Shown: positions 14,890 to 30,623 of the stretch, piece after piece
Position numbering within the stretch: the stretch's first letter is position 1
Layout: every line of letters starts with the position of its first letter
Assembly: GCA_964354975.1 (NCBI GenBank)
Contig: CAYHBS010000001.1
Coordinates: forward strand, 56,282-120,281
DNA from: an uncultured Candidatus Saccharibacteria bacterium
GTDB taxonomy: Bacteria; Patescibacteriota; Minisyncoccia; Ryanbacterales; HO2-45-13
DNA: 64,000 nucleotides
Direction: 5' to 3'
Position numbers and translations under genes: made by a program
Notes under the pieces: generated by a model
Databases searched by the model: none
What the model saw: only the letters and a program-made list of their open reading frames with translations
What the model was told of the DNA's origin: nothing

Positions 14890-15164
14890 TGGAGCCGTTG
14901 GCCGGAATTGAACCGGCGACCTACTCCTTCATTTACACCCCAATTTCGTAAAACATATATGGGGATTAGACTGTATCTTTGGCATATCCTTTCGGACGTA
15001 GCCACCCTTGTCAGTCGTTCGGGCCCTCGACTTCGCTCGGGCCACGGTCTTAACTCGATTTGAGTCTTTGACCGTAATTCGGGATTCATCTCAGAATTTC
15101 TTCTGAGATGGGCAGGGGCGTGTGGCCCCACCATGGAGTTGCTCTACCATCTGAGCTACAACGG
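14890..15164 (-). tRNA. tRNA-Thr (anticodon GGU inferred) interrupted by a 199-nt group I-like intron in the anticodon loop; CCA encoded
   Basis: 5' exon 15164..15129 GCCGTTGTAGCTCAGATGGTAGAGCAACTCCATGGT; 3' exon 14929..14890 AAGGAGTAGGTCGCCGGTTCAATTCCGGCCAACGGCTCCA; perfect acceptor, D, anticodon and T stems once 199 nt are removed. Confidence 0.75.
14930..15128 (-). ncRNA. Group I-like self-splicing intron (199 nt) inside the tRNA-Thr anticodon loop
   Basis: 5' exon ends in U (U-1), intron ends in G (omega-G); possible P1 between exon TGGT and intron GCCA; candidate P7 strands GACTG / CAGTC (ACGACTGACAAGG ... ACAGTCTAATCC); no ORF inside. Confidence 0.6.
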
Positions 15165-15217
15165 CACATGGGAACGAGTAACTCTGTATCCGCCAACCAG
15201 CGGAGCGCTACATGAGT

Positions 15218-15805
15218 TTATGGTAGCTCTGCGATGAACGCACACAGCTTATCACGAAGTTTTCGATTATTAAAGTGCACAGTGAGTACTCCATATTTCG
15301 CTTTATGTTTATAGTTGCCCACTCCTCGCGCCGGCGTGATAATCACTTTTTGAAACGCTGCCCGCGGAGCTGATATCTCACGCCTCCAATATGCGAGCGC
15401 AACCGATGGATTGGTGTCTGAAAATATTTGCAGGCCATATCTTAACTTCGCTTTATGTATACGAAATCGCTGTTCAAGAAATTTAAGAAAGTATCTAATG
15501 AGTTTTGGGTCGCTATTTCCAAGTCGCACTGAAGAAAGATTACGCTTTGTTCCTTCGCCCCAATATAAACCTATGCCTAAACCTTCCAAAAATGCTTCTT
15601 CTCGAATTTTAGGTGCAGCATATGAAAACGGATCACCTCCTGGGTTATGTTTAATATATACCGCATCCCGAATAGCACGTTTAGGAATTTCGTGCTTTTT
15701 TAGCCAATAATTAATGGTGCTTGTCCCTTTTTTCGTACGCTGGGCAATTTCCTTTGCCGACAACTGCTCACGTACATACATTTGCAACAGCGTTAATTTA
15801 TCCAT
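15218..15805 (-). CDS. HTH + LAGLIDADG-like (I-SceI-type GIGLxxGxG motif) homing-endonuclease-like protein, paralog of 29858-30487
   Basis: 195 aa; N-terminal HTH (LSAKEIAQRTKKGTSTINYWLKKHEI); EGLGIGLYWGEGTKRN resembles I-SceI EAGIGLILGDAYIRSR (from memory); stop codon 54 nt upstream of the intron-containing tRNA-Thr. Confidence 0.6.
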   Translation of the reverse strand: MDKLTLLQMYVREQLSAKEIAQRTKKGTSTINYWLKKHEIPKRAIRDAVYIKHNPGGDPFSYAAPKIREEAFLEGLGIGLYWGEGTKRNLSSVRLGNSDPKLIRYFLKFLEQRFRIHKAKLRYGLQIFSDTNPSVALAYWRREISAPRAAFQKVIITPARGVGNYKHKAKYGVLTVHFNNRKLRDKLCAFIAELP

Positions 15806-16061: not shown

Positions 16062-16145
16062 GCGTCGGTGGCGGAGTGGTCAATCGCACCAGACTGTAAA
16101 TCTGGCGGCCTTAGGCCTACGAAGGTTCGAATCCTTCCCGGCGCA
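16062..16145 (+). tRNA. tRNA-Tyr (anticodon GUA), long variable arm
   Basis: GCGTCGGTGGCGGAGTGGTCAATCGCACCAGACTGTAAATCTGGCGGCCTTAGGCCTACGAAGGTTCGAATCCTTCCCGGCGCA. Confidence 0.85.
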
Positions 16146-16304
16146 CACATTGCCAAAATCGGAGCACGGCTCCGGTTTTGTTGCTATGTGTAGTGATCGC
16201 GAGGGATTCGAAGGCGAGCACGCAAGGGTTCCATCAGTAGATGGAAACGTGCGAGCGTGGTCAGGCGGAGAAATGTTTCGACGGAAACATTTCGAGCGCT
16301 TGAC

Positions 16305-16324
16305 CGAATCCTTCCCGGCGCACA
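16305..16324 (+). repeat. Exact 20-nt direct repeat of the tRNA-Tyr 3' end (cgaatccttcccggcgcaca; first copy 16128-16147)
   Basis: seen in sequence; 157-nt spacer contains a 10-bp perfect hairpin gaaatgtttc gacg gaaacatttc (16270-16293). Confidence 0.8.
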
Positions 16325-29315: not shown

Positions 29316-29582
29316 TTATTTTCGTTTTAATTGATACACCTTCATCATTTCTTTCGTCGCTTTTTGCGTCTCGCCGGACGTGATCTGCTTGATAATACAA
29401 GTACCAAGATGTCCTTCAAGTAGTGCGTCTTCAACGCCCGAAAGCGCCTGCTTTACTGCAGAGGTTTGTGTAATTATATCAATACAGTATTTATCACTAC
29501 TCACCATTTCCTGGAGTGCGCGTACCTGTCCTTCAATAATTTTTAACCGCCGAAGTGCTCGTGTTTTATTTGTAGACTTCAT
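29316..29582 (-). CDS. csoR: CsoR/RcnR-family metal-sensing repressor
   Basis: 88 aa; DUF156-like helical bundle (RLKIIEGQVRALQEMV...C..H..C). Confidence 0.8.
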   Translation of the reverse strand: MKSTNKTRALRRLKIIEGQVRALQEMVSSDKYCIDIITQTSAVKQALSGVEDALLEGHLGTCIIKQITSGETQKATKEMMKVYQLKRK

Positions 29583-29593
29583 ATGATGCCATC

Positions 29594-29614
29594 ATATACC
29601 CCCTAGGGGTATAT
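29594..29614. promoter_or_regulatory. Candidate CsoR operator: 9-bp perfect inverted repeat ATATACCCC-cta-GGGGTATAT 12 nt upstream of csoR
   Basis: seen in sequence; matches the GC-core pseudo-palindrome TACCC-N-GGGTA typical of CsoR boxes (established knowledge). Confidence 0.65.
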
Positions 29615-29663
29615 GCAAGTGGATATCTCAAAATAGGAAACCCGCACATGCATGCGGGTGTAT

Positions 29664-29738
29664 TGGAGCCACCTCTCGGATTTGAACCGAGGACCCACGC
29701 TTTACAAAAGCGTTGCTCTACCACTGAGCTAAGGTGGC
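29664..29738 (-). tRNA. tRNA-Thr (anticodon UGU), CCA encoded
   Basis: GCCACCTTAGCTCAGTGGTAGAGCAACGCTTTTGTAAAGCGTGGGTCCTCGGTTCAAATCCGAGAGGTGGCTCCA. Confidence 0.85.
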
Positions 29739-29852
29739 AAATTTTTTCGAACGTCGGGATTCCGACTTCATTATTTATATACCAGATAGTGCGTCAGAGC
29801 AAAACAGTTGCGGCATTTACCCCACATCACGCGCAGCGTTGGTGGGGGGGGC

Positions 29853-29881
29853 CTGAGCTAAGGTAGCAAATTTTTCGAACG
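29853..29881. repeat. Direct repeat (29/30 nt, 1 mismatch + 1 indel) of the tRNA-Thr(UGU) 5' end plus 14 nt of its upstream region (first copy 29724-29753)
   Basis: ctgagctaaggtagcaaatttttcgaacg vs ctgagctaaggtggcaaattttttcgaacg; contains the stop codon and last codons of the adjacent homing-endonuclease-like gene. Confidence 0.8.
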
Positions 29882-30487
29882 ATATTCGTCAATCCAGTAG
29901 TTCAATCGATCCAGCAATAATACGTCCGAATACCGCACTGAAACTGTACCATACGCCGATAATCTTTTGTAGCTTCCGCGCGAAGTATTGTGAATTCGCG
30001 ATTTACTGAATTGTGTCAGTGGAATTTGCACCGTACGCGCCCAGAATTCTTTCAATTCTCTCTCTGATTGATGTGGGTAATAGTGCATCAAAATCCTCAA
30101 GCGAGTCTCATCAATTCCACAAATCTTCCTTAAGAAACGTACAAACAGTAATATGAGGTCCGGATCGCTATTTGAAAGCGCCACTGAGGTTCCCGACTTC
30201 GTGCCCTCACCCCAATACAACATAATCCCTGCAACGCTCAACAACGTCTCCTCCCGCGACATATTCACCTTTACCGAATGTGCCTTCTTGTGATGCTTTG
30301 TTCTATGTAACTCCCGTGCAGCAGCTGAAGTGTCTCTGCGTGAAATTTTTGAATCAATTAAAGTGGTGCGCACCCGATACGGCGTCATCTTTAAAGCTTC
30401 TGCAATCTGCTGGACTGACAACTTTTGCTCAGTGTATAGTCCTATAATTTTAGCTCGCTCGGTCCGCACCAGTTCTTCTCGCCTCAT
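29858..30487 (-). CDS. HTH + LAGLIDADG-like homing-endonuclease-like protein, paralog of 15218-15805
   Basis: 209 aa; HTH (LSVQQIAEALKMTPYRVRTTL); SVAGIMLYWGEGTKSGTSVALSNSDPDLILLFVRFL aligns with EGLGIGLYWGEGTKRNLSSVRLGNSDPKLIRYFLKFL of the other copy (about 35% identity overall). Confidence 0.6.
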   Translation of the reverse strand: MRREELVRTERAKIIGLYTEQKLSVQQIAEALKMTPYRVRTTLIDSKISRRDTSAAARELHRTKHHKKAHSVKVNMSREETLLSVAGIMLYWGEGTKSGTSVALSNSDPDLILLFVRFLRKICGIDETRLRILMHYYPHQSERELKEFWARTVQIPLTQFSKSRIHNTSRGSYKRLSAYGTVSVRYSDVLLLDRLNYWIDEYRSKNLLP

Positions 30488-30623
30488 ATCACTATGATAT
30501 CACGCGCTAACTGTTTTATACTAGTTAGTCTGTGTATATATTTTGGGTTGCGTAGTTAAAGAAACTGAAGCCGTGGTAAGTATAAAGCTACCTGTGTAAC
30601 AAGAATATTAAATATGTTTGAAT

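Follow-up and report, generated by a model that had tools for sequence, protein, structure and literature searches.

The stretch of 64,000 nucleotides (nt) analysed here (hereafter the window, numbered from its first letter) comes from an uncultured member of the Candidate Phyla Radiation (CPR) and carries on its minus strand a tRNA-Thr(UGU) gene, a truncated second copy of the 5' end of this gene and, running into that second copy, an open reading frame (ORF) of 209 amino acids (aa). The direct repeat formed by the two 5' ends, the spacer between them and the ORF are the subject of the present analysis, and comprise the following features:

29664..29738, minus strand: functional tRNA-Thr(UGU) gene (ARAGORN tRNA-Thr(tgt); Rfam RF00005, 71.6 bits)
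29724..29753, minus strand: repeat copy 1, a 15-nt 5' leader cgttcgaaaaaattt and tRNA nt 1-15 GCCACCTTAGCTCAG
29753-29766, minus strand: leader hairpin GTCGGAATCCCGAC
29754..29852, minus strand: 99-nt spacer, with a C8 run (29844-29851), a -35 element CTGACG (29797-29792) and a -10 element AATAAT (29775-29770)
29853..29867, minus strand: stub, a pseudo 5' end of tRNA-Thr (nt 1-15), GCTACCTTAGCTCAG
29868..29881, minus strand: 14-nt tail cgttcgaaaaattt, the flank part of repeat copy 2, coding for R-S-K-N-(L) of the ORF
29858..30487, minus strand: 209-aa ORF with an N-terminal helix-turn-helix (HTH) and a C-terminal LYWGEG..NSDP domain, a putative site-specific nuclease or selfish gene
30488..30501, minus strand: remnant of the old tRNA promoter/leader, gatatcatagtgat, whose match sits directly 5' of the stub or tRNA +1 in the related loci L105 and L113

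In plus-strand letters, the two copies of the repeat read CTGAGCTAAGGTGGCAAATTTTTTCGAACG (29724-29753) and CTGAGCTAAGGTAGCAAATTTTTCGAACG (29853-29881); they lie 129 nt apart, start to start, and differ by one substitution and a one-base indel in an A/T run (29 of 30 nt identical). The 23-nt core of the repeat has two exact matches in the window, while none of 100 dinucleotide-preserving shuffles gives two. When the neighbourhoods of both copies are locally aligned, the similarity is restricted to these 29-30 nt and the flanks align no better than shuffled sequence, so that the repeat, with its sharp ends on both sides, is a discrete block and not the rim of a larger tandem duplication; tandem duplication of the 129-nt unit was rejected on the same grounds. 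No third copy or distant attachment-site (att) partner was found in the window with three mismatches allowed. Copy 1 belongs to a genuine tRNA gene, the full cloverleaf of which is recognised by both ARAGORN and Rfam. Copy 2 includes tRNA nt 1-15 alone, and neither a tRNA (ARAGORN) nor an Rfam match, even at E<=10, is called at 29853-29881; read along the minus strand, its stub is followed by a G and the C8 run, not by the remaining D-loop. Copy 2 supplies the final seven codons and the stop of the ORF, which ends ...W-I-D-E-Y-R-S-K-N-L-L-P-stop, with the TAG (29858-29860) coinciding with stub nt 8-10, the tRNA-like U8-A9-G10. An identical stub and tRNA structure occurs in at least 12 independently assembled contigs, derived from several Hainich groundwater samples and other runs, and an assembly artefact is therefore excluded. 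An apparent one-base variation in the C8/G8 run at the stub-spacer junction is seen between contigs of the same population (L012 and L007), as a one-base gap in otherwise identical alignments.

Related loci were sought via three diverged homologues of a neighbouring gene coding for a 145-aa protein (L113, L110 and L105), and one further locus with a similar spacer (L126) was recovered by the hairpin scan described below. Their arrangements are as follows:

L113 (neighbour protein 82% identical): stop codon of the 145-aa gene, 41 nt, intact tRNA-Thr (to the contig end)
L110 (64% identical): 63 nt, tRNA-Thr, CsoR gene
L105 (71% identical): 40 nt (..gatatcatccagtgaac), stub GCCACCTTAGC interrupted by a 40-nt palindromic insert and continued by TCAGTGG, spacer 79% identical to that of the window, tRNA-Thr, CsoR gene; ORF absent
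L126 (other genomic context): stub GCCACCTTAGCTC, 16-nt hairpin, GGCAGAGT, 160-nt spacer, tRNA-Thr(UGU)

The sequence gatatcat-agtga directly upstream of the ATG of the window ORF corresponds to that located 5' of the stub or tRNA +1 in L105 and L113, and the ORF is therefore lodged between the former tRNA promoter and the former tRNA start. Given that stub, spacer and tRNA are likewise found in L105, from which the ORF is absent, and in L126, where no family ORF was seen on a contig extending just 55 nt upstream of the stub, the tRNA part of the duplication was not made by this copy of the ORF. The plain tRNA genes of L113 and L110 show in turn that the stub structure is not fixed. The 14-nt tail of copy 2 is absent 5' of the stub in both L105 and L126 and is identical at 14 of 15 positions to the window's own leader, which itself differs by about 30% between lineages; this tail is therefore confined to the window lineage, where it either arose recently or has been homogenised by gene conversion. 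As judged from these comparisons, the tRNA part of the duplication is older than the window genome, without being fixed, and the flank part alone is window-specific. Exact look-ups of the neighbour proteins yielded no ORF-less allele in the same population, as every contig that reaches that far bears the ORF.

The spacer itself contains promoter-like elements (CTGACG-16-AATAAT in a promoter scan). In an alignment of the window, L105 and L126, the -35-like blocks (cTGACg, tGGACg and tAGACa, respectively) and the -10 ATAAT are kept, an invariant GAAGT follows the -10 block, ATAATGAAGT is conserved in both L105 and L126, and the leader hairpin is maintained in both with one changed base pair. Matches to the spacer are confined to the Hainich population, the L105 lineage and L126, where the 3' half of the 160-nt spacer is homologous. 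The conserved -35 and -10 elements, GAAGT and hairpin identify the spacer as the promoter and leader of the live tRNA, and the tRNA-Thr(UGU) is thus predicted, from this conservation only, to be transcribed from its own promoter inside the spacer. An earlier note on this DNA had described a 29/30-nt repeat 129 nt apart, of which one copy is the real tRNA 5' end and the other a truncated stub joined to the end of the ORF; the former is borne out by the coordinates, alignment and shuffle test and the latter by the ARAGORN and Rfam results and the ORF overlap. The hairpin it placed in the spacer is present (GTCGGGATTCCGAC, 29753-29766), while its G9 run is 8 nt long (29844-29851) and the repeated flank it called promoter-proximal is transcribed leader, the promoter lying within the spacer.

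The helix-turn-helix at the N-terminus is the sole part of the 209-aa protein recognised in Pfam, NCBIfam and PHROGs, and no GIY-YIG domain is found by Pfam. Its homologues share the invariant residues L83, Y91, W92, E94, G95, N106, W149 and G180 and the motifs LYWGEGxK and NSDP; K97 is nearly invariant and E94 closes the helix spanning residues 78-94. The full-length protein is modelled by AlphaFold with a predicted local distance difference test (pLDDT) score of 93.7 (92.8 for the C-terminal domain), and the string ..AGIMLYWGEG.., which resembles the LAGLIDADG motif without being diagnostic of it, forms the end of the first helix of the C-terminal domain. Homologues (80 matches in the first search) occur only in Patescibacteria/CPR, and none were found in phage genomes. 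The family comprises at least 574 loci confirmed in species-representative genomes, and 1142 clusters at 50% identity (E<=1e-30).

The location of the family relative to tRNA genes was determined in the 80 best genomic loci (L020-L099), in which matches were extended to the stop codon and tRNAs were called with ARAGORN. Fifty-nine of 79 family ORFs end between -110 and +20 nt from the 5' end of a same-strand tRNA, whereas only 7 of the 695 remaining long frames of these loci do so (Fisher 8e-63). The closest homologues adjoin tRNA-Thr(UGU), their stop codon being either the TAG of TAGCTCAG (offset -9) or the TAA of the anticodon-loop TTGTAA (offset -37), a more distant subfamily adjoins tRNA-Tyr(GUA), and further members adjoin tRNA-Thr(GGU), tRNA-Thr(CGU) or tRNA-Lys, such that the identity of the adjoining tRNA follows the protein subfamily (Thr-UGU, then Tyr, then Thr-GGU). 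About nine more ORFs adjoin tRNA stubs or tRNAs missed by ARAGORN on account of an intervening sequence of about 200 nt, and in approximately eight loci the order is reversed, with the tRNA just upstream of the ORF. In the conserved CPR cluster Thr(GGU)-Tyr-Thr(UGU)-Trp the ORF precedes differing tRNAs between genomes or is absent. Sporadic presence at a precise conserved site, as is expected of homing endonuclease genes, is thus observed in the fixed offset, the empty sites in L113, L110 and L105 and the variable occupancy of the cluster; this fixed offset and sporadic occupancy are the distribution of a site-specific selfish insertion and not of a housekeeping gene. The window ORF keeps the canonical -9 offset, but counted from the stub and not from the functional tRNA. 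Whereas the stop codons of most family members fall within tRNAs that can be processed, those in the window, L042, L083 and L096 fall within a stub that cannot.

The order ORF, stub, spacer and tRNA has arisen independently in L042, in L083 and L096, and at a second locus of the window, which carries a paralog of the ORF:

15218..15805, minus strand: paralogous ORF, 195 aa (31% identity, E 1e-24), upstream of another tRNA
15179..15217, minus strand: decayed tRNA 5' stub, its D-loop with a 16-nt hairpin TCCGCTGGTTGGCGGA (15189-15204), between the paralogous ORF and tRNA-Thr(GGU)
14890..15165, minus strand: tRNA-Thr(GGU), split after anticodon nt 36 by a group I-like intervening sequence of about 200 nt, read from the sequence

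In L042 the stub GCTGCTATAGTTCAG ends at nt 15 and is followed by 9 nt and the tRNA, while in L083 and L096 a spacer of 40-50 nt is flanked by duplicates of about 11 nt of leader and 13 nt of tRNA. At the paralog locus the stop codon (15218-15220) is located 52 nt upstream of the 5' end of tRNA-Thr(GGU) (15165), and is followed by the decayed stub with its hairpin, 22 nt and the tRNA. Across all cases the breakpoints fall within tRNA nt 11-18. A scan of JGI metagenome contigs for TAGCTC followed by TCCGCYGGYTGRCGGA recovered 29 loci (L114-L142; JGI/ENA); nearly all of these contain a truncated tRNA 5' copy (Asn, Arg, Thr, Val, Asp or Ile) whose nt 13 is followed by an identical 16-nt hairpin, TCCGCCGGCTGGCGGA, and 50-310 nt farther downstream an intact copy of the same tRNA. 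In the tRNA-Asn loci (ORFs in the range L114-L140) the interval codes for a GIY-YIG protein of about 80 aa (PF01541, E 1e-16), and in all nine loci checked this frame extends into the tRNA, where the TAG of nt 8-10 (offset -9) terminates it. Two unrelated protein families, one with a GIY-YIG domain, thus share the same geometry with respect to the tRNA. Six hairpin loci (L126, L133, L115, L119, L127 and L129) are ORF-less, L117 has two tandem hairpin-bearing stubs ahead of the live tRNA, and in L130 a normal tRNA-Asn is accompanied by a second full-length copy that bears the hairpin in the D-loop. Most simply, the 16-nt hairpin would be the left terminus of a cassette that enters the D-loop with a replacement 5' tRNA part or a whole tRNA.

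A newer event is nested in the window tRNA itself. In the Hainich contig L019 (1-365) the tRNA-Thr is broken after nt 13 and resumes at about nt 44, with nt 14-43 replaced by TCCGCCGGCTGGCGGA, GGTAGAGC, 23 nt, a different complete tRNA-Thr(UGU) and 16 nt. Contig L014 (1-170), from another sample, likewise contains a different complete tRNA-Thr(UGU), has the same right-hand junction and bears 64 nt of extra inserted sequence, including a variant of the hairpin, in what remains of the T-loop. The sequences at the junctions share 6-12 nt with their flanks, which is too little for k-mer chimeras, and the two assemblies agree on the right-hand junction; L019 and L014 are therefore accepted, provisionally, as real variants with a newer insertion in the same tRNA. 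These nested insertions, the differing relatives and the analogous stubs in unrelated lineages lend weight to the suggestion in the earlier note that insertion and repair recur at tRNA genes of this genome. An identical structure fixed in all relatives, gene-less ones included, was named there as the finding that would speak against it: a stub structure is indeed present in the ORF-less L105 (and in L126, where no ORF was seen), whereas L113 and L110 are plain. The causal tie between the duplication and the adjacent copy of the ORF is, however, weaker than had been assumed.

The repeat is rather likely to be the junction pair of a duplicated tRNA-Thr(UGU) 5' end, built up in two layers, namely an old stub with spacer and tRNA, and an ORF in the slot of the stub. 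In the first layer, an insertion or the repair of a break centred on the D-loop (nt 11-18) would have brought in a promoter and a fresh 5' tRNA part. In the second, a selfish ORF lacking a stop codon would have been placed between the tRNA promoter and tRNA +1, ending on the TAG of U8-A9-G10; the window ORF would occupy the stub rather than the live tRNA, and would have brought or copied the 14-nt leader along. The HTH-LYWGEG ORFs, and the mini GIY-YIG ORFs, may be site-specific nucleases which recognise the 5' regions of tRNA genes and break these genes. Breaks in or near the D-loop would be repaired from misaligned or diverged templates, or given cassettes, with the old 5' end left as a stub and the gene rebuilt with a new 5' part and promoter. 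The ORFs may be expressed from the tRNA promoters, and RNase P cleavage would strip off a stop codon located in a processable tRNA, which would not occur in the stub arrangement. Single-step recombination from an L105-type to the window arrangement was also considered, and each of the several schemes tried needs an unobserved intermediate, such as an ORF directly before the live tRNA.

Several observations weigh against this interpretation. The live tRNA has an intact D-arm, so that an enzyme cutting the D-loop would lack obvious immunity, and the 14/15 identity of the tail requires either recent copying via an unobserved intermediate or gene conversion between the 30-nt repeats. Neither a nuclease fold nor nuclease activity is established for the window ORF: it has no match to Pfam LAGLIDADG_1/2/3, a Foldseek comparison with the PDB gives no LAGLIDADG enzyme among the top 50 (the best match being OmpA-like, with a template modelling (TM) score of about 0.4), and hhalign found no match to an approximate I-CreI sequence. 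LAGLIDADG is absent from the 25 most-matched Pfam families of the 44 members scanned, and none of ten larger relatives match it. The top matches in the BFVD viral model library are annotated LAGLIDADG endonucleases, but these are weak (E 1.5e-3, TM 0.24), and the match of the paralog to LAGLIDADG_3 (E 0.077, 13.7 bits) is below the gathering cut-off of 22.5. The label homing-endonuclease-like given to the ORF in the earlier note is thus unproven, and a LAGLIDADG-like nature should be taken as a lead rather than a result. In addition, the absence of a family ORF from L126 is not proven, and all of the evidence is derived from metagenome assemblies.

A broader reading is offered here tentatively. 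CPR tRNA genes would serve as homing sites for minimal selfish cassettes without promoter or stop codon of their own, which comprise at least two unrelated ORF families (HTH-LYWGEG and mini GIY-YIG), enter between tRNA promoter and tRNA +1, draw on that promoter for expression and end on the tRNA's TAG. Associated D-loop cassettes, marked by the 16-nt hairpin TCCGCCGGCTGGCGGA, would restore the gene by supplying a promoter together with either a new 5' tRNA part or an entire substitute tRNA; the 129-nt unit of the window would then be a relic that has neither hairpin nor ORF.

With respect to the order of events, acquisition of the spacer before the ORF is mildly favoured over the reverse. If the ORF came first, it would have adjoined the live tRNA, as most family members do, and repair of a break in the D-loop of this ORF-bearing allele would have re-copied the leader and nt 1-15 and captured about 99 nt of filler; ORF-less relatives would later have gained stub and spacer by recombination, the left-hand crossover falling inside the 5' part of the tRNA. 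The sharp ends of the repeat at -15 and +15 with 29 of 30 positions identical, the canonical -9 geometry of the ORF-stub junction, and the native-looking promoter-stub junction of L105, which is what a D-loop insertion into a plain tRNA is expected to leave, agree with such a course. Between the window and L105, however, the spacer is 79% and the leader about 70% identical, yet the two copies within the window are 97% identical, which requires continuing gene conversion, and no ORF-bearing relative with the simple arrangement, in which the ORF directly precedes the live tRNA, was found for this lineage. An ORF-first origin of the duplication is considered unlikely.

It is less probable still that stub and spacer constitute a selected RNA device, which would place the stop codon or 3' end beyond removal by RNase P or would insulate the tRNA from expression of the ORF. 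The placement of the stop codon in an unprocessable stub in the window, L042, L083 and L096, against a processable tRNA in most members, would fit this proposal, as would the conserved promoter and hairpin of the spacer. The stub and spacer, however, fold no better than shuffled sequences (z = -1.4) and match no Rfam family, and the sequence of the stub decays freely in other lineages. Selection for uncoupling the expression of ORF and tRNA may nevertheless help such arrangements to persist.

Partial tRNA duplications are a classic signature of integrative elements, and the tRNA-Tyr 3' duplication elsewhere in the window (see below) looks of this type. An attL/attR-type duplication, produced by an integrase-driven element in the tRNA gene that has since decayed to about 100 nt, is nonetheless very improbable here. 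It is the 5' and not the 3' end that is duplicated, and the 99 nt between the copies contain no ORF able to code for a recombinase, nor is a recombinase ORF located at or next to the repeat, the neighbours being the HTH gene, a CsoR-type repressor, a copper ATPase, EF-Ts and a hypothetical protein. The spacer is furthermore a conserved promoter and leader rather than the decaying DNA of an element. As in the att duplications of genomic islands and prophages, the inserted DNA carries a partial copy of the tRNA gene, which stays intact for this reason, with the displaced fragment persisting as a direct repeat. The att duplications known at tRNA genes affect the 3' part and rely on a tyrosine or serine recombinase, whereas at the window locus it is the 5' part that is duplicated, no recombinase is present, and a promoter has to be, and is, supplied by the inserted DNA. 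Chance similarity or an assembly artefact, in favour of which nothing but the short length of the repeat can be cited, is effectively dismissed by the shuffle test and by the recurrence of the structure in the independent contigs described above.

The closest documented parallel is SegB of the T-even phages, a free-standing GIY-YIG homing endonuclease encoded in a tRNA gene cluster, which drives segmental amplification with junction microhomology between the 3' end of segB and the 5' end of a tRNA (PMC2330249; PMC13096335). The likeness lies in a selfish nuclease gene (putative in the window) among tRNA genes, in a tRNA association that is statistically strong over many genomes, and in the pairing of the 3' end of an endonuclease gene with the 5' end of a tRNA, which is the same pair of sequences fused at the window locus. 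SegB is, however, phage-borne, has a GIY-YIG domain and its own stop codon and shows no fixed tRNA offset, while the window ORF is chromosomal in CPR bacteria, combines an HTH with an unassigned domain, reads into the tRNA, lacks phage homologues and is a putative nuclease only. LAGLIDADG homing endonucleases with matches to Pfam LAGLIDADG_1/2/3 have been described in the rRNA insertion sequences of CPR bacteria, with no mention of tRNA (PMC11270868), and form the nearest parallel with respect to the host. In common with the window family, they occur in CPR bacteria, are single-domain proteins of about 180-210 aa and show sporadic, site-specific placement in highly conserved RNA genes; the ..AGIMLYWGEG.. 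of the window family resembles their motif without being diagnostic of it. They are located inside rRNA introns or insertions, whereas the window family lies outside the tRNA, 5' of it, and has no above-threshold match to a LAGLIDADG model. Bacterial group I introns in tRNA anticodon loops similarly represent mobile insertions that are tolerated in tRNA genes, with a group I-like example beside the window paralog; the introns are removed at the RNA level, whereas stub and spacer are unspliced and a duplicated 5' exon restores the tRNA already in the DNA. Two ORF families that borrow tRNA promoters and TAG, together with hairpin-tagged stubs, appear to be undescribed in the literature searched, in which neither a tRNA-flanking endonuclease family of the CPR nor the 16-nt hairpin motif and its arrangement was found.

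If the two-layer interpretation and the proposed role of the ORFs are correct, essential single-copy tRNA genes of genome-reduced CPR bacteria would be repeatedly invaded, broken and rebuilt, with selfish genes borrowing the promoter and stop codon of the tRNA alike. Homing-type parasitism would extend from CPR rRNA introns and phage tRNA clusters (SegB) to the 5' flanks of chromosomal tRNA genes, and tRNA processing would be coupled to the expression of the parasite, as RNase P cleavage would leave a non-stop mRNA. The ORFs would further represent new candidate sequence-specific DNA-binding or DNA-cleaving proteins with predictable targets, the 5' ends of tRNA genes, and both tRNA stubs and the frequent breaking of contigs at tRNA loci in CPR metagenome bins would be explained.

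Many short-read contigs of the Hainich population (L003-L009, L011, L013 and L015-L018) break inside the tRNA-Thr, the left contigs ending at nt 24-41 and the right contigs starting at nt 44-53, which fits a tRNA core common to haplotypes or species splitting the assembly graph. Such breaks would be a practical reason for the under-representation of these loci in bins. The tRNA in L002 (5719-5884) departs from the others at its 3' end, GAGAGGCGGCTCA, and the unrelated sequence beyond it pairs with this 3' end into a long hairpin; the contig may be a chimera or another variant.

The intervening sequence of tRNA-Thr(GGU) is preceded by U, ends in G and contains, by eye, the R/S-like core motifs gaacgactgacaagg and aagatacagtctaa; neither tRNA nor intron is called at 14890-15165 by ARAGORN or Rfam, with no Intron_gpI match even at E<=1. 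The same split tRNA-Thr(GGU) is found in seven loci (L038, L080, L083, L084, L085, L087 and L094), and L090 shows a similar interruption of a tRNA-Tyr-like gene. One further duplication in the window also involves a tRNA gene:

16128..16324, plus strand: tRNA-Tyr 3'-end duplication, 20/20 nt at 16128-16147 and 16305-16324, 177 nt apart, with a 157-nt spacer

This duplication, to which the earlier note had also pointed and which does exist, covers the part from the T-loop to the CCA-proximal end, and within its spacer lie a terminator and, in inverted orientation, a T-arm-like piece, GGGATTCGAAGG. Repeats of this 3'-end kind are also located behind tRNA-Tyr or tRNA-Thr in L027, L041, L067, L071, L089 and L090, some of them as exact tandem units of 110-174 nt in two to three copies. 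Lastly, a palindrome, atatacccctagggggtatat, is located at approximately 29596-29618 on the minus strand, upstream of the CsoR-type repressor gene (29316-29582), with the tRNA terminator on one side and the csoR-copA-type operon on the other. It is kept in L105 and L110 and is probably the operator of this repressor.

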